Both the position numbers and the translations under genes were made by a program. From an uncultured SAR86 cluster bacterium (lineage in GTDB: Bacteria > Pseudomonadota > Gammaproteobacteria > Magnimaribacterales > D2472), in NCBI GenBank assembly GCA_902515455.1, contig CABXUO010000001.1:7297-71296 (forward strand): 64,000 nt of DNA, written 5' to 3'. Under the pieces are notes generated by a model that did not search any database, had not been told where the DNA came from, and worked only from the letters and a program-made list of their open reading frames with translations. Within the stretch, counting starts at the first letter, position 1. Every line of letters begins with the position of its first letter. Positions 6,204 to 54,355 of the stretch are shown here, in pieces.

Positions 6204-6697
6204 GCGAAGAAGAAAAAAAAGATTACGCTGAGTCTCCAATAAATTTGGAATATCATTATACAGCTGGATCAGCTACCACCCGATTTCTTAACCAAGTTAA
6301 AGAAGGCAAAATTGTAGGTCAGTCATGCCCAAAATGCAGCGCTGTATATGTACCTCCAAGAGGCAGCTGTCCAAGATGTGGAGTAGCAACAAATATCGAG
6401 GTTCCATTGACTGATAAAGGCTGCATTGAATCATTTACTATTGTGCATATTCCTATTCCGGGTAATCCCATCGTGCCGCCATATGTTTGTGCAATGATCA
6501 GGCTCGATGGAGCTAACATTTCTTTTTTGCATCTCATTCAAGGAATTGATGTTGAAGAAATAAGAATTGGGATGCGTATACAAGCAGTTTGGAAGCCTAA
6601 AGATGAATGGACTCATTCATTAGAGAACATCAAATGGTTTACTCCTATAGATGAACCAGATGTTGATGTTGCAACATTGAGGTTTCAAGAATCATGA
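6200..6697 (+). CDS. DUF35-type OB-fold protein with an intact 4-Cys zinc ribbon
   Basis: CPKCSAVYVPPRGSCPRCG rubredoxin-like ribbon followed by an OB-fold (CAMIRLDGANISFLHLIQG..IGMRIQAVW). ATGA overlaps on both sides. Confidence 0.75.
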   Translation: MSEEEKKDYAESPINLEYHYTAGSATTRFLNQVKEGKIVGQSCPKCSAVYVPPRGSCPRCGVATNIEVPLTDKGCIESFTIVHIPIPGNPIVPPYVCAMIRLDGANISFLHLIQGIDVEEIRIGMRIQAVWKPKDEWTHSLENIKWFTPIDEPDVDVATLRFQES

Positions 6698-7749
6698 GAA
6701 AAGTAGCAATCGTAGGATATGCTCAACATCCTATTTTAGAGAATGCGGGAGCTTTAAACGAAGTTGAACTCATCATGCCAGTTGTTCATCAGCTGTTTGA
6801 TGAATTAGGTATAAGTCAAAATAACATAGATTTTACCTGCTCAGGTAGTTGTGATTATTTGCAAGGAGCTGCTTTTGCATTTGTTGAAGGTTTATCTGCC
6901 ATTCAAACCAATCCTCCCATTAAAGAGTCGCATGTAGAAATGGATGCAGCTTGGGCGATGTATGAATCAATGCTAAAAATTCAAATGGGAGATGCAGATA
7001 CTGCATTGATTTATGGATTTGGTAAATCTTCTCCCGGTAGACTCGATTCAATAATTTCATTACAAATGGATCCTTATTACATTTCACCTCTTTGGCCAGA
7101 TCGAGTAAGTTTGGCTGCAATACAGGCAAGGGTGCTGCTTGAAAAAAATATCATAACTCCTGAACAAATGATTACAGCTGTTATTGAGGCAAGAACTAAT
7201 TCTAAGAATAATAAAAATGCACTTGTTACTGAATTGGTTGATAAAGAAGCATATCTAGCAAGTGAGAACATTTCTTCTCCACTCAATGAATTTGATTGTC
7301 CTCCAATATCTGACGGATCTTCTGCCATGATCATTGCCTCAGAAGAAAAAGCATATGAATTCACTGATCATCCTATTTTTATTGAAGGCATCGATCATAG
7401 AATTGAATCATCAAATATAGGCTCACGGGATCTTTCAAAACCTTCTGGAATACTGGCTTCAATTGAGCAGTTAAAACTTGAAAAAATAAAATTTGATGTT
7501 GCTGAGTTACATACTCAATTTAGTCATGAGGTGCCTTACTTACAATCCGTTTTAAACCTTAGTGATGTTCCAACAAATTTATCAGGTGGACCATTGGTTG
7601 GTAATGTCATGATGTGTGCAGGTTTGGATGCAATTGGCAAAACTTACGAGTCATTAAAATCCCATGATTTTACAAATGGCCTGGCGCATGCATCCTCTGG
7701 CCCATGTTTACAACATAACATGCTTGTTCATTTGGAGAAAAAATCATGA
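6694..7749 (+). CDS. thiolase-like (SCP-x/Ltp-type) protein lacking the nucleophilic Cys
   Basis: Thiolase-fold layout (VAIVGYAQ.., ..GFGKSS, NLSGGPL). The position aligned to the Cys of the N-x-C-A-S/T-G motif reads VEMDAAWA. Confidence 0.7.
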   Translation: MRKVAIVGYAQHPILENAGALNEVELIMPVVHQLFDELGISQNNIDFTCSGSCDYLQGAAFAFVEGLSAIQTNPPIKESHVEMDAAWAMYESMLKIQMGDADTALIYGFGKSSPGRLDSIISLQMDPYYISPLWPDRVSLAAIQARVLLEKNIITPEQMITAVIEARTNSKNNKNALVTELVDKEAYLASENISSPLNEFDCPPISDGSSAMIIASEEKAYEFTDHPIFIEGIDHRIESSNIGSRDLSKPSGILASIEQLKLEKIKFDVAELHTQFSHEVPYLQSVLNLSDVPTNLSGGPLVGNVMMCAGLDAIGKTYESLKSHDFTNGLAHASSGPCLQHNMLVHLEKKS

Positions 7750-46107: not shown

Positions 46108-46647
46108 ATGTTTACCAGAATGGATCACAGCACTGAAGAGGAGTGGCAGCATATTAGCGAGGAACATATGCCTCACATATTTGATATGCCAAAAAGAATT
46201 ATTTCAATGCTAAAGCAAGCCAAAGATTTAACACTTGGCTTTGGAACAGATCAATTACATCATGCATTGCAAACAGCCACAATGGCAAGAAGAGCTGGTG
46301 CGGATGACGAAATGATATTAATTAGCTTAATTCATGATATAGGTAAGGTCATCAACGTTCCTAACCATGGTCAAATCGCAGCTGAGATGATAAAACCTTA
46401 TGTTAGCGAAGATGCTTATCACATCATTAGAACTCATCAAGATTTTCAAGGAGAGCATTATTATCACTATATGGGTAAACCTCAAGATTTACGTAAACAA
46501 TATGTAAACGAGACATGGTATAAAAAAGCTATCGAATTCACAGATGAATGGGATCAGGTAGCATTCGATCCAAATTATCAAACCGATACACTTGAATCAT
46601 TCGAGCCATTAATTAAAAAGTTTTTTGCTGCTCCTCATACTATTTAA
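46108..46647 (+). CDS. HD-domain metalloprotein with a six-ligand (dinuclear) pattern, PhnZ/MIOX-like candidate
   Basis: H(HALQTA) ... HD(IGK) ... H(GQ) ... H(QD) ... D(QVAFDP). The block RRAGADDEMILISLIHDIGK resembles phosphonate-associated HD oxygenases as I recall them. Confidence 0.55.
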   Translation: MFTRMDHSTEEEWQHISEEHMPHIFDMPKRIISMLKQAKDLTLGFGTDQLHHALQTATMARRAGADDEMILISLIHDIGKVINVPNHGQIAAEMIKPYVSEDAYHIIRTHQDFQGEHYYHYMGKPQDLRKQYVNETWYKKAIEFTDEWDQVAFDPNYQTDTLESFEPLIKKFFAAPHTI

Positions 46648-46676: not shown

Positions 46677-47402
46677 ATGAATAGTAATATTTGGACTGAT
46701 ATAAAAAAAGAAATTTCATTAAGAATTGATGCTGAGCCATCTTTAAAGGATTATCTTGAGAGCTTAATTTTATCAAAAGATAATATTATCGAGGCCACGG
46801 CAGCAATTCTTGCATCAAAACTTCATAATGATGCATTATCATCAATTGACTTATATCACATTATTTTGTCTTCCTATAATGAAAAAAAATCTGTTGAAGG
46901 CAGCCTAATAGAGGATATTTTATTTTTTCGTGAAAATGATCCGGCTTGTAAATATTTATCTACACCACTTCTTTTTTATAAGGGTTTTCAAGGCTTAGCT
47001 GCATATAGATCAAGCAATATTTTATGGAATAATGATCGTCACACCATGGCTTTGTATATTCAAAATAGATCATCTGAAGTATTTGGTGTTGATATCCATC
47101 CAGCTGCATTCATTGATAGCTCCGTAATGATTGACCATGCTACAGGAGTTGTAATTGGCGAAACAGCGAAAATTAAAAAGGGCGTTTCAATTTTTCAAGG
47201 CGTTACATTAGGCGGGAAGGGTTTCAATAGCGGCGATAGGCATCCTAAAATTGAAGAGGGAGTCTCTATTTTTGCATCAAGCACAATATTAGGAAATGTA
47301 ACAATTGGTAAAAATTCTGTTGTTGCTGCTGGAAGTTTAGTCCTTGATGATGTTGAGAATGAATCGACAGTAGCAGGTATTCCTGCAAAAAAAATTAAAT
47401 AG
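46677..47402 (+). CDS. cysE: serine O-acetyltransferase
   Basis: N-terminal SATase helical domain plus left-handed beta-helix hexapeptide repeats (IDHATGVVIGETA, GVTLGG, GDRHPKIEEGV, AGIPAK). Confidence 0.85.
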   Translation: MNSNIWTDIKKEISLRIDAEPSLKDYLESLILSKDNIIEATAAILASKLHNDALSSIDLYHIILSSYNEKKSVEGSLIEDILFFRENDPACKYLSTPLLFYKGFQGLAAYRSSNILWNNDRHTMALYIQNRSSEVFGVDIHPAAFIDSSVMIDHATGVVIGETAKIKKGVSIFQGVTLGGKGFNSGDRHPKIEEGVSIFASSTILGNVTIGKNSVVAAGSLVLDDVENESTVAGIPAKKIK

Positions 47403-48417
47403 AACTTAAAATTTCTTTTTCTTCATCATTCATTTCAGAATCAATCTTTTCAAATAATACGGATGATAAATATCTTTCTGCGGTATCTGCCAGCATACAT
47501 AATATATTTGCTCCATCTGCTGCCTCCTCAGCGATTTTCATTGCGACTGCAAATGTTGATCCTCCAGATATACCAGTAATTATTCCTTCATTTCTAGCTA
47601 ATTTATTGGACCAGTAAACCCCATCTTCGCCTGAAACAGGTATATTCATATCAAAATAATTTTTATCAATTGATTCTTGTAAAACCAAAGGGATAAAGTC
47701 AGGTGTCCAGCCTTGAATTGGATGAGGGTTCCATGAATCATGTCCGCTTGCAGGCGAACCATCTTGATTTCTTTTTTGTGCTATCAAACTATTTACTAAT
47801 TGAGCATTGTCAGGCTCAGTAATAACAAGTTTTGTTCTAGGTGATTGTTCTTTTAAAACACGTGAGACCCCGCTGAAAGTTCCACCTGTTCCATAACCTG
47901 ATACCCAATAATCTAATCCTAATTCTTTGAAGTCATTCAAAATTTCAATAGCAGTTGTTTTTTCATGAATATCTGCATTTGCATCATTTTCAAACTGCCT
48001 GGCATAAAACCATTTATTTTTATCACATAACTTTTTAGCAAGGTTATATGCAGCAGTTGTTCCTTCAGATGCTGGAGTTAAAAGAACTTTAGCGCCAAGA
48101 AATCGCATTAATTTTCTTCTTTCAACTGAGGTACTATCAGGCATTGTCATAACACATGGATAACCTTTGCTTGCGCATACCATTGCTAATCCAATTCCAG
48201 TATTCCCACTTGTGGCTTCAACTACAGTTTGATTTGGTTCTAATAGCCCTTCCTTTTCAGCTTTTTCAATTATATTCAAAGCCAATCTATCCTTTACTGA
48301 GCCACCAGGATTAAAGTATTCAGCTTTAACAAAAAGGTTTATATTTTTGGGAGCAATATTTTTAATTTTTATAATTGGTGTATTACCAATTGAGCTTAAT
48401 AGATCTTTATAAATCAT
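47395..48417 (-). CDS. cysteine synthase / PLP-dependent CysK-family enzyme (long form with an insertion)
   Basis: NPGGSVKDR PLP-lysine motif, SGNTG and GTGGT. A 340-aa form carries the ..HPIQGWTPDFIP insertion. Confidence 0.8.
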   Translation of the reverse strand: MIYKDLLSSIGNTPIIKIKNIAPKNINLFVKAEYFNPGGSVKDRLALNIIEKAEKEGLLEPNQTVVEATSGNTGIGLAMVCASKGYPCVMTMPDSTSVERRKLMRFLGAKVLLTPASEGTTAAYNLAKKLCDKNKWFYARQFENDANADIHEKTTAIEILNDFKELGLDYWVSGYGTGGTFSGVSRVLKEQSPRTKLVITEPDNAQLVNSLIAQKRNQDGSPASGHDSWNPHPIQGWTPDFIPLVLQESIDKNYFDMNIPVSGEDGVYWSNKLARNEGIITGISGGSTFAVAMKIAEEAADGANILCMLADTAERYLSSVLFEKIDSEMNDEEKEILSSI

Positions 48418-48467
48418 GATAAGTGCCTTACGTAAAGTTTAAAAATTTCATTTACTTTAAACATTAT

Positions 48468-48501
48468 AATTAAAATTAAAATTAAAATTAAAATTAAAAT
48501 T
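48468..48501. repeat. hexanucleotide microsatellite (AATTAA) x 5.7
   Basis: Counted directly: five perfect AATTAA units plus AATT. Lies in the 104-nt gap between the Rieske gene stop and the cysK-like start. Confidence 0.9.
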
Positions 48502-48521
48502 TCGATTTAATAAGTAATTTA

Positions 48522-49655
48522 TTATAGTTTTTCTGGTTCTGTATCTTGATAAGATAATGGAATAGCGTCTCTTATTTTGTTAGCGCTATCTATTAAGCAT
48601 ACTTCAGATGATGCAAGTGGGCCTGATTTAAAGTAGTTTGTATTCATGCCTTCTTGAACAAGATTAATTAATTTCGTATCTTCGTTATTAACTTGTCTAT
48701 TAATTCTCCAATTTAGATATTGAGCAACTTTAGTCTCTCTTCTATCATCAGGAAGAGCATATGCAATTTCCCTGATTATTGTTGTTTTTGCGTCTATGGG
48801 TATGAATTGCATGAAATCCATTTGTTCAGGATATATATCAAATGCAAGATTTGGCCAAAGCCTGAAATAAACCCAGTATCTTTGTTTGTTTTTTGGAAGA
48901 TGGTCCATGTAAGGCAAGTATTTATCATAAAGTTTGTTTGAAAGATTATTTTTACGAGAATTTTTTCCATCTCCCCACATTTTATGAATGTATCCATTAT
49001 TAGGGGATACTTCAACGCCATAGCTTTTGCCTACTAGCCCAGATAACCCAGGATGAGCTACAGGAATATGAAGAGCATCAACGTAGTTATCAGCAATCTG
49101 CTTCCAGTTAACATTTCTTGGTCTCATCGTAATTCTTCCTAGCGGCTCCATTTCATTGAGTTTGTATTGACTTATTTCGTCAAGGTATGGAGCAAACTGA
49201 CTATTAACAGTTGGAACATCTGACTCAATTAACTTTACAAAAATAAAACCTTGAAAAATTTCCATTTCAACACTTTTTAATTTGTGCTCATTTTTATTGA
49301 AATCAATAAATTGATTTTCGTAAGGTACTTTTATGAGGTTGCCATTAAAATCATATCCCCATGCATGATAGGGACATGTTATTTTTCCTTTGCAGGTTCC
49401 AGATGTTTCATCAATAAGCTTAGTTCCTCTATGAGAGCAGAAGTTATGAAAAGCCCTTACATTTTTATCTTCACCTCTGATAACAAATACTCTTTCATTA
49501 AAAATCTCAAATGTAAAATAATCTCCTGCTTTAGGTATGTTAGAAATATGACAAACCAATTGCCAATTTTTAAGAATTAACTCAGTTTTTTCGAGTTCAA
49601 AAAATGCATCACTTGTATAAGTCCATCCTGGCAAACTTTTATATATTTTTTTCAT
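48522..49655 (-). CDS. Rieske [2Fe-2S] non-haem iron oxygenase, alpha-subunit type
   Basis: CSHRG...CPYHAWGY Rieske motif and a mononuclear iron motif NYVDALHIPVAH (D-x2-H-x4-H). Confidence 0.85.
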   Translation of the reverse strand: MKKIYKSLPGWTYTSDAFFELEKTELILKNWQLVCHISNIPKAGDYFTFEIFNERVFVIRGEDKNVRAFHNFCSHRGTKLIDETSGTCKGKITCPYHAWGYDFNGNLIKVPYENQFIDFNKNEHKLKSVEMEIFQGFIFVKLIESDVPTVNSQFAPYLDEISQYKLNEMEPLGRITMRPRNVNWKQIADNYVDALHIPVAHPGLSGLVGKSYGVEVSPNNGYIHKMWGDGKNSRKNNLSNKLYDKYLPYMDHLPKNKQRYWVYFRLWPNLAFDIYPEQMDFMQFIPIDAKTTIIREIAYALPDDRRETKVAQYLNWRINRQVNNEDTKLINLVQEGMNTNYFKSGPLASSEVCLIDSANKIRDAIPLSYQDTEPEKL

Positions 49656-49658
49656 ACG

Positions 49659-50525
49659 TTAGTTTCTTATTAGCGGTCTTGTTAGGCAAGTAGGTCCACC
49701 TTCACCTTTTCGACTAATTTCATCACCTTTATAAAAACGAATTTTGCATCCAATCTTCTCAAGTTTATTTTTAATTTCAGGTAAATTTTCAAGCATGATA
49801 ATTGATCTTGGAGCTGTTGCCAAAATGTTACACCCCATTAATGGATATTCAGCTTCACTCACTTCAATAAATTCTATTCCTAATTTAGTGAGCCAGTTTA
49901 AAAATGTTTCAGGCATAAAAGGCTTATAGATAACTGCAAGATCTTTATCTAATGGTGAAATTATTGACATTAAATGCAAGACATCATCTGGATGATCTGG
50001 ATCAGGCAAATTTACAATATGTAGATCGATTTCTGGGCCTAAAATTTCTTTGAGTTGACGAATTCCTTCAGAATTGGTTCTTGGTCCTAAACCAACTGCA
50101 GCATTTTTATTATCTATCCAAATAAAATCACCGCCTTCAAGCGTCCCAGGTGATTTTATTTGTCCTGCAACTTTATACCCATTATCTGCAAGAGTTTTAA
50201 AATTCTCCTCTGCTTCAGGCGTTCTAGATGATCTTCCCATATTACATAGAATCAAACCTGAGTCACATACCAAAATACTATCTCTGGTATAAATACTATC
50301 TAAAGTTAACTTATCTGAGGAGGGGAGCTCAATGATCTTGATTTCATCTTCTTCAAGAAAACTCCTAAAATAATCGTATTCAATAATTGCTTTTTTTAGA
50401 TCTGGTTTTGCATGAAATCTAAGTGGCGTCCATTCATTTGTAATTTTTTCATCATTAACAAAGCTTGAAAGTGGAGACCTAATTGCAACCTCACTTATTT
50501 TAGAGTATTCATTTAATAGGTTCAT
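49659..50525 (-). CDS. guanidino-group-modifying enzyme (amidinotransferase / DDAH / arginine deiminase-like fold)
   Basis: YTRDS, LEGGDF, VLHLMS and a C-terminal GEGGPTCLTRPL (nucleophilic Cys), the order seen in the DDAH/ADI superfamily. Confidence 0.7.
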   Translation of the reverse strand: MNLLNEYSKISEVAIRSPLSSFVNDEKITNEWTPLRFHAKPDLKKAIIEYDYFRSFLEEDEIKIIELPSSDKLTLDSIYTRDSILVCDSGLILCNMGRSSRTPEAEENFKTLADNGYKVAGQIKSPGTLEGGDFIWIDNKNAAVGLGPRTNSEGIRQLKEILGPEIDLHIVNLPDPDHPDDVLHLMSIISPLDKDLAVIYKPFMPETFLNWLTKLGIEFIEVSEAEYPLMGCNILATAPRSIIMLENLPEIKNKLEKIGCKIRFYKGDEISRKGEGGPTCLTRPLIRN

Positions 50526-51829
50526 AATTCTGTTTTAAAAAGATATATAGGTGTTCCAATGAAAATTAGAATAACTGAATACATAATCATCTCTATGCCT
50601 GCTCCCCAAATAGCAAAAATTGCGTATAAAAAGGTCCCAAATGATATCAAAAAAGCATACTTTTTTTGCTGACTTTTTTTATTTGTATGCACAAATTTTA
50701 ATTCAGCCATAGCACAAAATGCATAGGCTATTAAAGTGGATAATGTTGAGAGCATGGCCATAAAAACAAATGCATTTATGATGCCTTTTGTATAATTCAA
50801 CATTAACAGAATACTTACAAATGTACCTGACAACAGATATGTAAATATAGGTGTGCCAGATTTTGTTAATGATATAAATTTAGCTGGAAGTAAGCCATCT
50901 CTTGCTGCTGCTAAACTTAAGTTACCTGCTGTAAGTGTGTTTGCATTTAATGAGCCCAAAGTAGAAACAAGAGCTCCAATAGTAATTAGTGTGCCGCCTG
51001 TAGATCCTAAAATTTTGCTAGCAGCTAAAGCAAATGGGGCAGAGGAATCTATGAGTTCTTTTGCTGGAACGATCAATGCAATCGCAAAACTTACTAGGAT
51101 ATAAAGAGTCAAAATTGTTAAAACAGATGCTATTAAAACTTTTGGGATAGTTTCTTGAGGATTAATTACATTATCTGCAGGAACTGTTGCAGTTTCAATT
51201 CCAATGAATGACCACATAACTAAGGTCGTGACAGTACCTAGCAATGAAAGAGGGTGAAGGTTGGTTGGATTAAACTCCGGCAAGTTACTAACATTTAAAT
51301 TTGACGCGCCGAGAAAAATAATTAATAGAAGAGGTAATAATTTCAATAGAGTTGAAATTAGCTGAAATCTACTACTGTTTTCTATGCTTTTAATATTTAG
51401 AAGTACAACAGCCCAAACTAACAACAGTGAAGCAATCAAAGAATGAATTGGCGAATCGCTAATATTTGGAATAAAAAAACCTAAATAGCCAACAAAGGCT
51501 ATTGATATTCCCGCAATTGCAGAAATACATGCAATCCAATAAGTCCAGGCAATTATAAAGCCAGAAAAACTTCCCAGTGCTTCATTGACATAAACATAAG
51601 GACCTCCAGTCTTTGGCATTCTTATTACCAGTTGAGCCATCGTTAGGGCAACTAAGATTGATCCTAGTCCTGCTATAAGCCAACCAAAGAAACCAAGCAT
51701 CCCGTAGGGTGCTAAAATTGTAGGCATCATAAAAATCCCTGAGCCAATAGCGCAGCCAACTGCTATGGACCAGCCCCTCCAAAATCCAATAACTCTATGT
51801 TGATTAGAATTCATCAAATGATAATACAC
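50522..51829 (-). CDS. APC-superfamily amino acid/polyamine permease
   Basis: 12-TM protein. GCAIGSGIFMMP and GGPYVYV motifs resemble basic amino acid/polyamine antiporters. Its stop overlaps the next start (ATGA). Confidence 0.8.
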   Translation of the reverse strand: MYYHLMNSNQHRVIGFWRGWSIAVGCAIGSGIFMMPTILAPYGMLGFFGWLIAGLGSILVALTMAQLVIRMPKTGGPYVYVNEALGSFSGFIIAWTYWIACISAIAGISIAFVGYLGFFIPNISDSPIHSLIASLLLVWAVVLLNIKSIENSSRFQLISTLLKLLPLLLIIFLGASNLNVSNLPEFNPTNLHPLSLLGTVTTLVMWSFIGIETATVPADNVINPQETIPKVLIASVLTILTLYILVSFAIALIVPAKELIDSSAPFALAASKILGSTGGTLITIGALVSTLGSLNANTLTAGNLSLAAARDGLLPAKFISLTKSGTPIFTYLLSGTFVSILLMLNYTKGIINAFVFMAMLSTLSTLIAYAFCAMAELKFVHTNKKSQQKKYAFLISFGTFLYAIFAIWGAGIEMIMYSVILIFIGTPIYLFKTEL

Positions 51830-51907
51830 CTAAAAAATAAGGTTTTTTAATAATATGAAGTTCTCATCAAGACACGATGAGTAATAAGAGAATTTAGATA
51901 AAGCGAT

Positions 51908-52504
51908 TTAAGATTTTTTTGCCATCATTATTACTAATTTATATAAGATCGGCGCCATGATTAACCATGGTAATTGTGTCTGAAACATAACGCTCCTTTC
52001 ATTGAACTCAAACAGTAGTGGATTAAAGTATTGGCCAGTTGGTGCGAAGGGAGCCCATGAAAGTATTTTCCCCTCTGACAATTGATCATGATATAAAAAA
52101 AGTTCTACAAAGAGATTTTGTGTAATGCACCATAAAAGTAGGATACTAAATGCAGACCAGTTCCATTGCTCAAATATCAATGAATTTTTATCACTCCATT
52201 TCCACATTAACCACAAACCTACAAAAGAGATCGTTCCAGCATCTGCCATTGAATTTAATAGCCAATTTATATGAATGGGAATCCATTCATTTAAAACGCT
52301 GGATCTCCTTAAATTAACTGGATCTCCATCAATCCACCCATATGTGAACCAGAGCTCCCAACCCAATGAGCACATAATGAACATACCAGCATATAAGGAT
52401 GGAACCCATTTTGGGATTTTATCCTTGTGATAAAAGTAAATAACTAGAGGAACAAGAGCACTAACATAAACAATTAATATTACTCTTAGTTCCTCTAGCG
52501 TCAT
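51908..52504 (-). CDS. Trp-rich polytopic membrane protein, unknown function
   Basis: 198 aa with about 5-6 hydrophobic segments and many Trp residues (GWELWFTYGW, LWLMWKW, EQWNW). No family recognised. 3 nt downstream of the DUF4177 gene. Confidence 0.6.
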   Translation of the reverse strand: MTLEELRVILIVYVSALVPLVIYFYHKDKIPKWVPSLYAGMFIMCSLGWELWFTYGWIDGDPVNLRRSSVLNEWIPIHINWLLNSMADAGTISFVGLWLMWKWSDKNSLIFEQWNWSAFSILLLWCITQNLFVELFLYHDQLSEGKILSWAPFAPTGQYFNPLLFEFNERSVMFQTQLPWLIMAPILYKLVIMMAKKS

Positions 52505-52507
52505 TAA

Positions 52508-52723
52508 TTAAATTTGACGTCTTAAGTATATTTGTTTTGGGCCATCTTGAGAGATTAATTCCCAGCTTTCTTTCCCAAGTTTATTTAACTCAATTCTAGA
52601 CATCTCATATTTCCAATGTACAGCATCTTTATGTTCAATCTTAAATGCTTCAGTCTCTTCGTTTGAGTAACCCATAGCTGTTGAATTGCTATGATCGACA
52701 ATTTTATATTCCCATTTTGTCAT
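52508..52723 (-). CDS. DUF4177-like small protein (71 aa)
   Basis: MTKWEYKIV... ...LNKLGKESWELIS matches the WEYK / LN..G..GWEL pattern of DUF4177. GGAG RBS 7 nt upstream. Confidence 0.6.
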   Translation of the reverse strand: MTKWEYKIVDHSNSTAMGYSNEETEAFKIEHKDAVHWKYEMSRIELNKLGKESWELISQDGPKQIYLRRQI

Positions 52724-52752
52724 TTTTTCATCTCCTGCCGGTTGGCAATAAG

Positions 52753-52805
52753 ATGCGTTCCTTCAGTATCATTACTTACTTCCGTCCTATGAAAGGATGA
52801 ACGAT
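52753..52805 (-). ncRNA. candidate glutamine riboswitch (glnA-RNA / Downstream-peptide class), cis-regulatory leader
   Basis: The minus-strand RNA reads AUCGUUCAUCCUUUCAUAGGACGGAAGUAAGUAAUGAUACUGAAGGAACGCAU. P1 is CGUUC/GAACG. Hairpin UCCU-uucau-AGGA. Conserved ACGGAAGUA. Hairpin AGUA-auga-UACU. Conserved GAAGGAACGC. It lies 29 nt upstream of the DUF4177 ATG. Confidence 0.65.
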
Positions 52806-52811
52806 AAGATA

Positions 52812-52841
52812 ATTTTCACAAATTATGTTCATCGGTGTCAA
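52812..52841 (-). promoter_or_regulatory. sigma-70-like promoter for the riboswitch leader
   Basis: The minus strand has TTGACA (52836-52841), an 18-nt spacer and GAAAAT (52812-52817). The predicted start falls about 7 nt downstream, at the first aptamer nucleotides. Confidence 0.4.
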
Positions 52842-52884
52842 ATTTGAAATGATATTTCATCAAATATGATGGTTATCTGTTACA

Positions 52885-52912
52885 TTTACTTATTTCTAAA
52901 AGTCTTTAAAAT
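52885..52912 (+). promoter_or_regulatory. sigma-70-like promoter for tRNA-Ser
   Basis: TTTACT-N16-TAAAAT ends 17 nt before the mature tRNA 5' end. Confidence 0.35.
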
Positions 52913-52929
52913 GCCTTACCTTAAGGAAT

Positions 52930-53019
52930 GGAGAGATGGCAGAGCGGTTGAATGCACTGGTCTTGAAAACCAGCAAACCTTCGCGGGTTTCCAGGGTTCG
53001 AATCCCTGTCTCTCCGCCA
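52930..53019 (+). tRNA. tRNA-Ser (anticodon UGA), CCA encoded
   Basis: Acceptor GGAGAGA/TCTCTCC. Anticodon stem CTGGT/ACCAG with loop CTTGAAA. Long variable arm AAACC-ttcgc-GGGTTT. T arm CAGGG-TTCGAAT-CCCTG. Discriminator G plus CCA. Confidence 0.95.
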
Positions 53020-53023
53020 GTTT

Positions 53024-54355
53024 TTAGTTGCTCAAACTAGAATAGAGTAATGTTTTAAGTTCCTCTCGAAGTGGATATTTATCCGATGGCATGTACTGCG
53101 TCATCATTGTAGCTGCAACATTATTTTTTTTATCCACCCAGAAAATTGTGCTAGCAGCACCACCCCAAAAAAATTCTCCCTTTGAAGAATAAGTTCCAGC
53201 AACACCAGGATTCATAATAGTTCCAACTGTTAATCCGAAACCAACACCTTCTAATCCAAAAGCAGATCCATCTTTTAGAATTTCATCTGAGAGATGATTA
53301 TTTGACATCAAATTTACAGATGCTTCACTGAGGATTCTGACACCATTTAAAATACCACCATTTAAAAGCATCTCAGCAAATTTACTATAATCATCTATAT
53401 TCGAGACTAGACCTGAACCACCATCATAAAGTTTTGAGGAATTTGTAAGATATGGCGACTTATCAAAGGCGTCTATTGGTCTAAGTTCTTTGGAAAATAT
53501 AAGCTCAGCTTGATTTAAACCAGAAGGAGCAACAATTTCTCCATCTCTCGAAAATGCTCCTGAGGTATAAAGTGTTGTAAATGAATCCTTATCACTTTCA
53601 TTTACTGAAAAGCCAATACTTTCAAGTCCCAATGGATCAAATATATTTTTTTGAAGATACTCAGCAAATGTCATTTTTGAAATCACTTCAACCACGCATC
53701 CCAAAATATCCATATTAATTCCATATGACCATTTTTCTCCTGGATTATGAAGGAGAGGTACAGAGGCTGCAGCAGTAGAAAACTGGCAGGTATTGCCTGG
53801 AAATTTATTTAGTTCTGCATCCACAGCTCCAAAATAATAGGGACGAATATTATATTTTCTATACATTTGGTTAACTGGACCTTCACCAGCCCAGCTGTAA
53901 GTAAGGCCACTTGTATGAGTTAATAAGTCTCTAATTGTTACTTCTCTTTTTGGTTTTACCACATAATCTTGAAAATCAAGATTGATAACTTTTGTATTTT
54001 TAAAAGCAGGAATATATTTAGAAACCTTGTCATTTAATCTTAATTTTCCACTCTCAATGAGTTGCATAATTGCAACGCCAGTAACCGGCTTTGTCATTGA
54101 GTAAATTCTAAAAACAGTTTTTTTGTCTATATTTATATTTTTTTCAATATCCGCATATCCGTGAGTGTGACGAAATATTTCTTTACTATCTTTTTTTATT
54201 AGAATTGAGATATTAGGTAAACTGCCGTTATTAACATATTCATTAAAATGATTTGAAATTCTTTTTTTGTCTTCTGAGTCAAGCGAGCTTGCAGAAATTT
54301 GCAATGATATTAAAAAAAATAATATTAATGATCTAAAGATTCTCATAAATTTCAC
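53024..54355 (-). CDS. serine hydrolase, beta-lactamase (class C)/esterase family, secreted
   Basis: Signal peptide, S-x-x-K motif SMTKPVTG, and downstream Tyr and GG motifs. Confidence 0.8.
   Translation of the reverse strand: MKFMRIFRSLILFFLISLQISASSLDSEDKKRISNHFNEYVNNGSLPNISILIKKDSKEIFRHTHGYADIEKNINIDKKTVFRIYSMTKPVTGVAIMQLIESGKLRLNDKVSKYIPAFKNTKVINLDFQDYVVKPKREVTIRDLLTHTSGLTYSWAGEGPVNQMYRKYNIRPYYFGAVDAELNKFPGNTCQFSTAAASVPLLHNPGEKWSYGINMDILGCVVEVISKMTFAEYLQKNIFDPLGLESIGFSVNESDKDSFTTLYTSGAFSRDGEIVAPSGLNQAELIFSKELRPIDAFDKSPYLTNSSKLYDGGSGLVSNIDDYSKFAEMLLNGGILNGVRILSEASVNLMSNNHLSDEILKDGSAFGLEGVGFGLTVGTIMNPGVAGTYSSKGEFFWGGAASTIFWVDKKNNVAATMMTQYMPSDKYPLREELKTLLYSSLSN

Follow-up and report, generated by a model that had tools for sequence, protein, structure and literature searches.

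What does a glutamine riboswitch regulate in a heterotrophic marine bacterium? To our knowledge, the working of such riboswitches has been demonstrated in cyanobacteria only; there they turn on IF17, a small protein that inhibits glutamine synthetase. The question is raised by a 64,000-nucleotide (nt) stretch of contig CABXUO010000001.1 (assembly GCA_902515455.1), referred to here as the window, which comes from an uncultured bacterium of the SAR86 cluster, among the most abundant heterotrophic groups of the surface ocean. On its minus strand lies an array of co-directional genes, read as one from position 52841 to 48522, which opens with a glutamine aptamer, the gene for a small protein of 71 residues and the gene for a membrane protein of 198 residues (Table 1). 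Judged from the related loci compared, what recurs as a regulated unit is the small gene together with its glutamine aptamer. From analogy, weak homology and the layout of the leader, we lean towards a reading in which glutamine turns on translation of a small nitrogen-status effector that heads a riboswitch-controlled unit.

The aptamer is of type I (glnA RNA, RF01739). The Rfam covariance model scores 60.6 bits against a gathering threshold of 35 (E 6.6e-11) and is aligned over model positions 1-53 of 53, with helices P1, P2 and P3 and the conserved junctions ACGGAAGUA and GAAGGAACG present in the alignment. Pairing in P1, P2 and P3 is 100% in nine related leaders. An earlier note on this DNA had described the aptamer, a DUF4177-like open reading frame (ORF) of 71 codons and, 3 nt further on, a Trp-rich membrane ORF of 198 codons; the ORF coordinates proved exact and the membrane protein holds 14 Trp in 198 residues (7.1%). 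A sigma-70-like promoter site, the top consensus match within the 5.9 kb scanned (47200-53100), ends 6 nt upstream of the aptamer, and its TTGACA box stands at an equal distance in the leaders of most related loci. Aptamer-like sites picked out by a fuzzy regular expression in L068 (Luminiphilus) and L089 were discarded as false positives, Rfam giving no match there. Glutamine riboswitches have been described from cyanobacteria and marine metagenomes (PMC2864571), and a 2025 study reports RF01739 matches inside structural variants of SAR86 genomes, their cargo not being analysed (PMC12379486). A literature search found no paper linking a glutamine riboswitch with DUF4177.

Between P1 and the small gene lies a hairpin that would sequester the Shine-Dalgarno (SD) sequence. 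Its 5' arm begins at the linchpin C (C52755), which adjoins P1; C52755 and the following AUCUU pair with GGAGAUG at 52735-52729, and the SD motif GGAG (52732-52735) sits in the 3' arm. The hairpin, which takes up the 27 nt after P1, is present in the minimum free energy (MFE) fold of the leader and has -12.2 kcal/mol for the segment alone. Across 11 loci the stems are invariant and the loop is variable, and one leader (L220) carries a single compensatory change, from C-G to U-A, at the closing pair. This is the layout, though the layout only, of a gifB-type expression platform, in which the tail starting at the linchpin C pairs with the ribosome-binding site. In the structure of the Synechococcus aptamer the linchpin C reportedly makes a ligand-dependent long-range pair. 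For gifB of Synechocystis, pairing of the segment from the linchpin C onward with the ribosome-binding site has been proposed, and glutamine raises translation (Klaehn et al., 2018; PMC6212724); structural work, as cited by these authors, has ligand binding melt a short helix below P1 (PMC6212724). Because the 5' arm of the SAR86 hairpin starts at the ligand-paired C, glutamine binding should weaken the hairpin, free the SD sequence and turn translation ON, and this arrangement makes a glutamine-ON translational switch probable. A mini-ORF (AUG-AAA-AAA-UGA, 52720-52731, minus strand) begins within the hairpin and runs over the start codon of the small gene; as related leaders do not preserve its reading frame, it is probably non-functional.

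The identity of the regulated unit emerges from the distribution of its parts. Relatives of the membrane protein were found in 216 genomes of a one-genome-per-species scan, and the best 80 loci were fetched; nearly all of these 80 are SAR86 genomes assembled from single cells or metagenomes, with a few from Halieaceae or SAR92. The loci containing the small gene fall into the following classes, which are drawn from a limited number of loci. In class a, comprising the window, L001, nine species genomes (L017-L025, including SAR86E) and L098, the aptamer is followed by the small gene, the membrane gene, a permease, a hydrolase resembling dimethylarginine dimethylaminohydrolase (DDAH) and a Rieske oxygenase. 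In class a' (L226 and, in part, L227) the aptamer, the small gene and a membrane gene 74% identical to that of the window are followed by a convergent M20 peptidase gene and only then by the permease and the DDAH-like hydrolase. In class b the aptamer and the small gene stand alone before a convergent gene, in two unrelated neighbourhoods, the small protein being 77% identical in L220 and 72% in L221/L222. Finally, in class c (L004-L012, L223-L225 and L026) the small gene lacks an aptamer, and lenient thresholds bring up none either.

The leaders of classes a, a' and b align end to end, from aptamer to start codon, and the riboswitch and the small gene appear therefore to have moved as one piece. 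Since leader and small gene also occur monocistronically (L220-L222), the small protein would be the primary cargo of the riboswitch. The aptamer had been taken for a property of the operon rather than of the small gene on account of the aptamer-free L004-L012, a view overturned by L220-L222 and L226. The window lineage has an ordinary SAR86 five-helix membrane gene and an uptake and breakdown cassette placed behind the aptamer and small-gene unit. As to the association of small gene, membrane gene and aptamer envisaged by the earlier note, it is kept in classes a and a', and synteny is lost outside that sub-lineage.

The small ORF has 277 relatives in a protein search. Between the window and relatives with about 80-86% protein identity it shows 18-23 synonymous against 9-11 non-synonymous codon differences (about 2:1), and the membrane gene 62-69 against 39-41 (about 1.6:1); the excess of synonymous changes indicates that both ORFs are real genes. 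The small protein lacks both a signal peptide and a hydrophobic segment. It scores 16.8 bits against DUF4177 (PF13783; E 0.0083, gathering 25), a profile that matches 18 of 18 aligned family members (best E 2.4e-6) and is precomputed for many relatives of 60-77% identity; the regions that match are the N-terminal strand and the helix LNxLGxxGWEL. Membership would in any case say little, because we know of no established function for the DUF4177 family, and the papers found in a literature search give none. The only consistent NCBIfam match is Sp36_fam (NF053529), which likewise matches 18 of 18 aligned members (best E 2.3e-7); the window protein reaches 20.1 bits (E 4.4e-4) over profile positions 1-32 of 50, below the cut-off of 50. 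The family of IF17/GifB, PF14105 (DUF4278), gives no match to the small protein at E up to 0.1, while a DUF4278 control from a metagenome sample scores 89 bits against the same profile. Riboswitch-linked small proteins have a shorter N-terminus and the motif GWEL(I/V)S(Q/L)D, and the aptamer-free ones lack both. Matches to HIV reverse transcriptase in a sequence profile search of the PDB were set aside as spurious, and a scan of contigs found no relatives of the small protein on viral contigs.

The match to Sp36_fam points to a described protein. sP36 of Methanosarcina mazei is a 61-residue protein that relocates to the membrane when ammonium rises; it binds both AmtB1 and GlnK1, and the GlnK1-AmtB1 complex requires it in order to form (Habenicht et al., 2023; PMC10714827). 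This archaeal protein shuts off the uptake of ammonium upon nitrogen upshift, and such binding and relocation are known for the M. mazei protein only. Its N-terminus, MTIWEYD as read from published primers, carries the same strand motif as the SAR86 protein. The two are alike in size (61 and 71 residues), in the N-terminal WEY strand and helix motif and in a connection to nitrogen upshift, which on the SAR86 side is deduced. They differ in several respects: the SAR86 protein carries an insert, about 30 residues long and invariant, and scores 20 bits where 50 are required; no amtB or glnK gene lies near the SAR86 unit; and sP36 is not known to stand under a riboswitch. On the strength of the profile matches the small protein is related to sP36 at the superfamily level and is not a member of the sP36 family, a kinship best regarded as a lead to follow. 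A bolder proposal holds that it is the bacterial counterpart of sP36, triggered by glutamine and plugging or re-tuning membrane proteins of nitrogen uptake, among them, in the window lineage, the co-translated five-helix protein as a new class of channel or receptor for cationic nitrogen compounds. This is rather improbable; if true, archaea, cyanobacteria and streamlined marine heterotrophs would in principle have in common a nitrogen feedback that works through small proteins and does not depend on PII.

With the cyanobacterial gifB/IF17 system (PMC6212724) the SAR86 unit shares the aptamer class, the predicted logic of the platform, a small-protein product and the glutamine signal. The product, however, is of the DUF4177 and not the DUF4278 type, without YRG repeats, and the host is a heterotrophic gammaproteobacterium; in the window the unit is the first part of a polycistronic operon, whose further genes serve membrane, transport and catabolic roles, and nothing ties the small protein to glutamine synthetase. 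The analogy with IF17 drawn by the earlier note gains some ground from the layout of the platform, which is that proposed for gifB, and from the match of all members to the Sp36 model, albeit below the cut-off. A further parallel is found in Pelagibacter, where a riboswitch-like leader places the amt gene SAR11_1310 under post-transcriptional control, with expression only under nitrogen-replete conditions, in an organism without the PII/GlnD system (Smith et al., 2013; PMC3870248). Common to both cases would be a streamlined marine heterotroph and a nitrogen-related membrane protein made only when nitrogen is replete. In the Pelagibacter case, on the other hand, the identity and ligand of the leader are not established in the paper, there is no small protein, and organism and gene are different.

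In the reading that is slightly favoured here, glutamine would bind the aptamer, the hairpin would weaken, the SD sequence would be freed and the small protein translated. The membrane protein would then be made through translational coupling, the permease being apparently translated from its own ribosome-binding site. Made at high glutamine, the small protein would brake a target in nitrogen acquisition or assimilation, resembling IF17 in its action on glutamine synthetase or archaeal sP36 in its action on AmtB/GlnK. The target need not be the adjacent membrane protein.

Several points weigh against this effector reading. On the side of the switch, covariation statistics across the SAR86 leaders, which are too alike, give no support, the predicted unliganded MFE fold holds the hairpin and P1 together, and the ON polarity is read from the layout alone. 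On the side of the protein, its matches to sP36 and DUF4177 lie below the curated cut-offs and Foldseek finds no significant match, with no solved structural neighbour in the PDB. The predicted model (beta-alpha-alpha-beta-beta) has a moderate predicted local distance difference test score (pLDDT) of 74.7, lowest in the insert DHSNSTxMGYSN..TE.FK. The aptamer-free small genes of class c, found in many SAR86 lineages, indicate a function independent of glutamine control. Finally, the reading names no target for the small protein, and it would run against intuition to switch a nitrogen-scavenging-like cassette ON at high glutamine, unless gating is confined to the first two cistrons.

A known switch with the predicted platform is thus found with a different small-protein cargo family and in a new, ecologically important host, SAR86. 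If the analogy with IF17 and sP36 holds, glutamine-triggered small protein inhibitors may be a general route of nitrogen feedback.

Table 1. Features of the glutamine-aptamer locus and its surroundings, in window coordinates.
Feature	Coordinates	Strand	Basis or remark
tRNA-Ser(TGA)	52930..53019	+	Boundary of variable SAR86 island
Sigma-70-like promoter, TTGACA-18 nt-GAAAAT with TG extension	52812..52841	-	Consensus match only, 10/12
Type-I glutamine riboswitch aptamer (glnA RNA, RF01739)	52752..52805	-	Rfam covariance model
Putative SD-sequestering hairpin, CAUCUU..UGCC-AACC-GGCA..GGAGAUG	52729..52755	-	MFE fold
71-residue small-protein ORF	52508..52723	-	Predicted cytoplasmic; SAR86-wide family, DUF4177 superfamily
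198-residue membrane-protein ORF	51908..52504	-	Starts 3 nt past the small-gene stop, same frame
APC-superfamily amino-acid/polyamine permease	50522..51829	-	PF13520, 152 bits; second APC profile PF00324, 133 bits; both above gathering
DDAH/arginine-deiminase-fold hydrolase, guanidino-group-modifying	49659..50525	-	PF02274, PF19420
Rieske non-haem-iron oxygenase alpha subunit, CntA/GbcA-like	48522..49655	-	CntA structure match

The genes downstream of the membrane gene invite another reading of the locus. The best NCBIfam matches of the permease are a basic amino acid/polyamine antiporter and an arginine/agmatine antiporter, both below their equivalog cut-offs; an AGGUG motif precedes an internal AUG of the ORF, which may be the true start, and the permease may therefore be translated independently. 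The closest solved structure to the hydrolase is dimethylarginine dimethylaminohydrolase of P. aeruginosa (3rhy, E 4.8e-12), and that to the Rieske protein is carnitine monooxygenase CntA (6y8j, E 8.8e-38, residues 8-343), with an NCBIfam match to GbcA spanning the N-terminal half. As a guess from these similarities, the cassette might take up and degrade a compound of the guanidino or methylated-amine kind, for instance a methylarginine or a carnitine-like betaine. The riboswitch could accordingly be imagined to govern all genes of the operon together for nitrogen scavenging, whether by glutamine-OFF switching or by polarity on the genes downstream. In that case the small and five-helix proteins would be accessory to guanidino or methylated-amine uptake and breakdown, or the small ORF would be mainly a leader cistron.

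This whole-operon reading draws on the nature of the three downstream products (an APC permease, a DDAH-like hydrolase and a CntA/GbcA-like oxygenase), on a gene order held in nine species genomes and several metagenome contigs, and on the sequence scan of 47200-53100, in which no terminator-like site was seen between the membrane gene and the permease. It is nevertheless unlikely, for the leader and small gene stand alone in L220-L222, and in L226 a convergent peptidase gene parts the first two cistrons from the permease. Furthermore, the platform fits an ON-type layout, the permease apparently has its AGGUG site to itself, and the SAR86-wide small gene is usually unlinked to any such cassette. 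In L226 (6292-7585) the APC permease is split into overlapping frames (6292-6813 and 6806-7585), which may be a frameshift pseudogene or an error of the single-cell assembly.

The second gene of the array encodes a protein that the earlier note could not assign to a family, and this assessment is borne out by profile and structure searches. In Pfam none of 22 diverse members finds a match at E below 0.05. In NCBIfam no family is matched, the only hit being SemiSWEET_2 at 14.9 bits where 80 are required. A sequence profile search of the PDB returns nothing with E of 2 or less, and Foldseek returns best E values of 2.6 in the PDB, with TM below 0.3, and 3.1 in BFVD. Relatives are plentiful, with more than 1000 in a word-indexed protein search and 130 cluster representatives in an exhaustive one. 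An AlphaFold model built from a 22-sequence alignment is confident (pLDDT 93.6; predicted template-modelling score, pTM, 0.88) and places helices at residues 3-25, 33-55, 77-103, 116-137 and 174-197 and a beta hairpin at 163-173. The protein represents an undescribed, Trp-rich inner-membrane family with, according to this model, five transmembrane helices and a beta hairpin. As read from the sequence, the placing of Lys and Arg residues in its loops speaks for an N-out, C-in topology.

Residues E50, G60, D88, P152 and P155 of this protein are invariant family-wide. A total of 57 positions are nearly universal among SAR86 proteins and their relatives; 7 and 14 of them fall in the two periplasmic loops, helices 3 and 4 are likewise rich in them, and only two lie in cytoplasmic loops. 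The conserved polar and Trp residues point towards the periplasm, as would suit an enzyme or binding site directed outwards; we infer one formed of acidic, amide and Trp side chains, and an enzyme working on the outer side of the membrane seems to us likelier than a transporter. Six positions are specific to the riboswitch-linked copies, only one of them cytoplasmic, and these copies show no cytoplasmic surface peculiar to them. Distant relatives occur in MMETSP protist transcriptomes and on contigs with giant-virus hallmark genes (L217 6001-7299, L218 6001-6621; P0213, P0234 and P0236), the hallmarks being RNA polymerase Rpb1, Erv1/Alr, a PIF1 helicase, an intein-bearing AAA protein and DNMK; the five-helix copy of L217 is fused to a weakly methyltransferase-like C-terminal domain. 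The family combines a confident model unlike solved folds with a range that spans marine gammaproteobacteria, protist transcriptomes and giant-virus-like contigs.

The junction between the two genes is tight, and in this respect the earlier note was right that the pair is closely coupled behind the leader. Of 12 loci, 11 retain a spacing of 3-4 nt without an SD-like motif; SAR86E is the exception, with a later ATG picked as the start, and a GTG start would restore the tight junction. In the window, the 22 nt before the membrane-gene ATG contain no SD-like motif, and translation of the membrane gene is probably coupled to that of the small ORF. Elsewhere the membrane gene habitually lies 0-3 nt behind varied upstream genes, for example LOG, GNAT and CIA30. 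A tight junction that lacks a ribosome-binding site and is common to many upstream partners appears therefore to be a habit of the membrane gene and no mark of a partnership with the small protein.

The surroundings of the membrane gene in other genomes are equally varied. In 70 of the best 80 loci there is no aptamer, permease or hydrolase nearby and no adjacent small gene; one of these 70, L026, has the small gene about 3 kb from the membrane gene, and its neighbourhood has flanking genes in common with the window (DUF3089-, 4HBT- and hydrolase-like). In the commonest setting, that of 33 loci (among L035-L093), the membrane gene ends the array pgk-fba (class I aldolase)-dtd-LOG, usually 0-3 nt behind the LOG gene (PF03641); this array faces tatC and tatB, and a functional link is not evident. 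In the remaining loci the gene lies behind a GNAT, RidA or CIA30-like gene or stands alone. No consistent functional theme runs through these membrane-gene neighbourhoods, which include LOG, GNAT, RidA, CIA30, MFS, amidohydrolase and SSS transporter genes.

These data bear on the model of the earlier note, in which the small and five-helix proteins form a dedicated module, a cytoplasmic glutamine-dependent regulator docking on a channel, transporter or sensor. The junction of 3-4 nt retained across the 12 loci compared speaks for such a module, as do the pair's survival in L226 and L227, where the permease is separated, and the action at a membrane protein of sP36, the nearest named relative (PMC10714827). 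By contrast, the riboswitch and small gene occur without the membrane gene in L220-L222, and the membrane gene occurs without an adjacent small gene in 70 of 80 species loci, 33 of them with the gene joined behind a LOG-family gene. The surfaces point the same way, since universal residues lie in periplasmic loops and the outer halves of helices, with two in cytoplasmic loops, and the positions specific to riboswitch-linked copies include only one in a cytoplasmic loop. Moreover, the protist and giant-virus-like relatives have no DUF4177-family gene annotated among their neighbours. A dedicated partnership is accordingly not supported by phyletic pattern, conserved surfaces or gene context, and the module is quite unlikely. 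What stands of the proposed glutamine-responsive regulator with a membrane partner is the first half, the small protein as the primary cargo of the riboswitch; the adjacent partner fares badly, given the 70 of 80 loci without the small gene.

The opposite extreme is that the adjacency is functionally meaningless, a rearrangement in the variable island beside tRNA-Ser having joined unrelated genes, with the membrane gene using any upstream ORF for coupling. In L026 one neighbourhood holds both genes at a distance of 3 kb, the content of the island depends on lineage, and the genes to which the membrane gene is coupled upstream are many and diverse, all of which would be expected on this account. 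Against it stands the persistence of the junction in at least 10 species-level lineages (70-100% protein identity) and in two downstream contexts, and it is very unlikely. From this persistence we infer that the membrane protein is glutamine-dependent in those lineages, whatever its origin.

The effector reading, in which a small protein is the product chiefly controlled, can also be set beside type-I aptamers at large. The metagenome sample comprised 120 loci (L097-L216) with 132 aptamers among the matches listed, from a scan that demanded exact core motifs. In 96 of 110 aptamer-ORF units an ORF of at most 150 residues lies within 60 nt downstream, and these small ORFs form at least nine recurring families, the largest being DUF4278 (IF17/GifB). 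The sampled marine type-I glutamine aptamers thus mostly precede small ORFs, of many unannotated families, and the SAR86 unit of aptamer and small gene agrees with this pattern as it does with the IF17 logic of cyanobacteria. Pairing of the first eight nt from the linchpin C with the region from -4 to -16 is predicted in 72 of 100 units, against 48.5 ± 3.5 with tails shuffled and 50.7 ± 3.1 with tails swapped between units. The resulting tail-to-SD hairpin is predicted in 21 of 29 DUF4278 units, in 11 of 12 from a further small-ORF family and in both DUF4177 units (2/2), and the helix sequences vary by family (CGCCUC/GGAGGCG, CACC/GGUG, CAUCUU/GGAGAUG).

Other features of the sample concern the cargo. 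Besides DUF4278, several of the recurring families lack a Pfam match; one of these, 'MTDKRHTKL...NGNGTSGY..KGKVLGH', has 13 members behind aptamers, and the '...YITDNPFYP' and '...FFPYYL' small-ORF families often lie behind tandem aptamers. Few of the sampled aptamers stand ahead of amt, gltB or glutamine synthetase genes. In L134 and L175 a 51-residue ORF starts 27 nt past a type-I aptamer, and the match of its C-terminal 19 residues to PqqA (41.5 bits; cut-off 21.1) suggests a peptide resembling the pyrroloquinoline quinone precursor under glutamine control.

The flanks of the window are syntenic with SAR86 contigs, at a G+C content of about 35%. The tRNA-Ser(TGA) adjoins the small-gene region in L001, L008, L009, L017, L024, L025, L098, L223 and L226 as well, the intervening genes differing, and a gene of the beta-lactamase family also lies upstream, near this tRNA. 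The island (52930-54355 in the window, with matching stretches in L008, L009, L017, L223 and L226) carries lineage-variable genes between the tRNA and the small gene, for example Lactamase_B, GFA, DUF6552 and a fatty-acid desaturase. At the other end of the array, cysK and cysE come after the Rieske gene, and just past them (46108-46647, plus strand) lies a gene for an HD-domain protein with weak similarity to phosphonate-degrading oxygenases of the PhnZ type (37.8 bits; cut-off 214.6).

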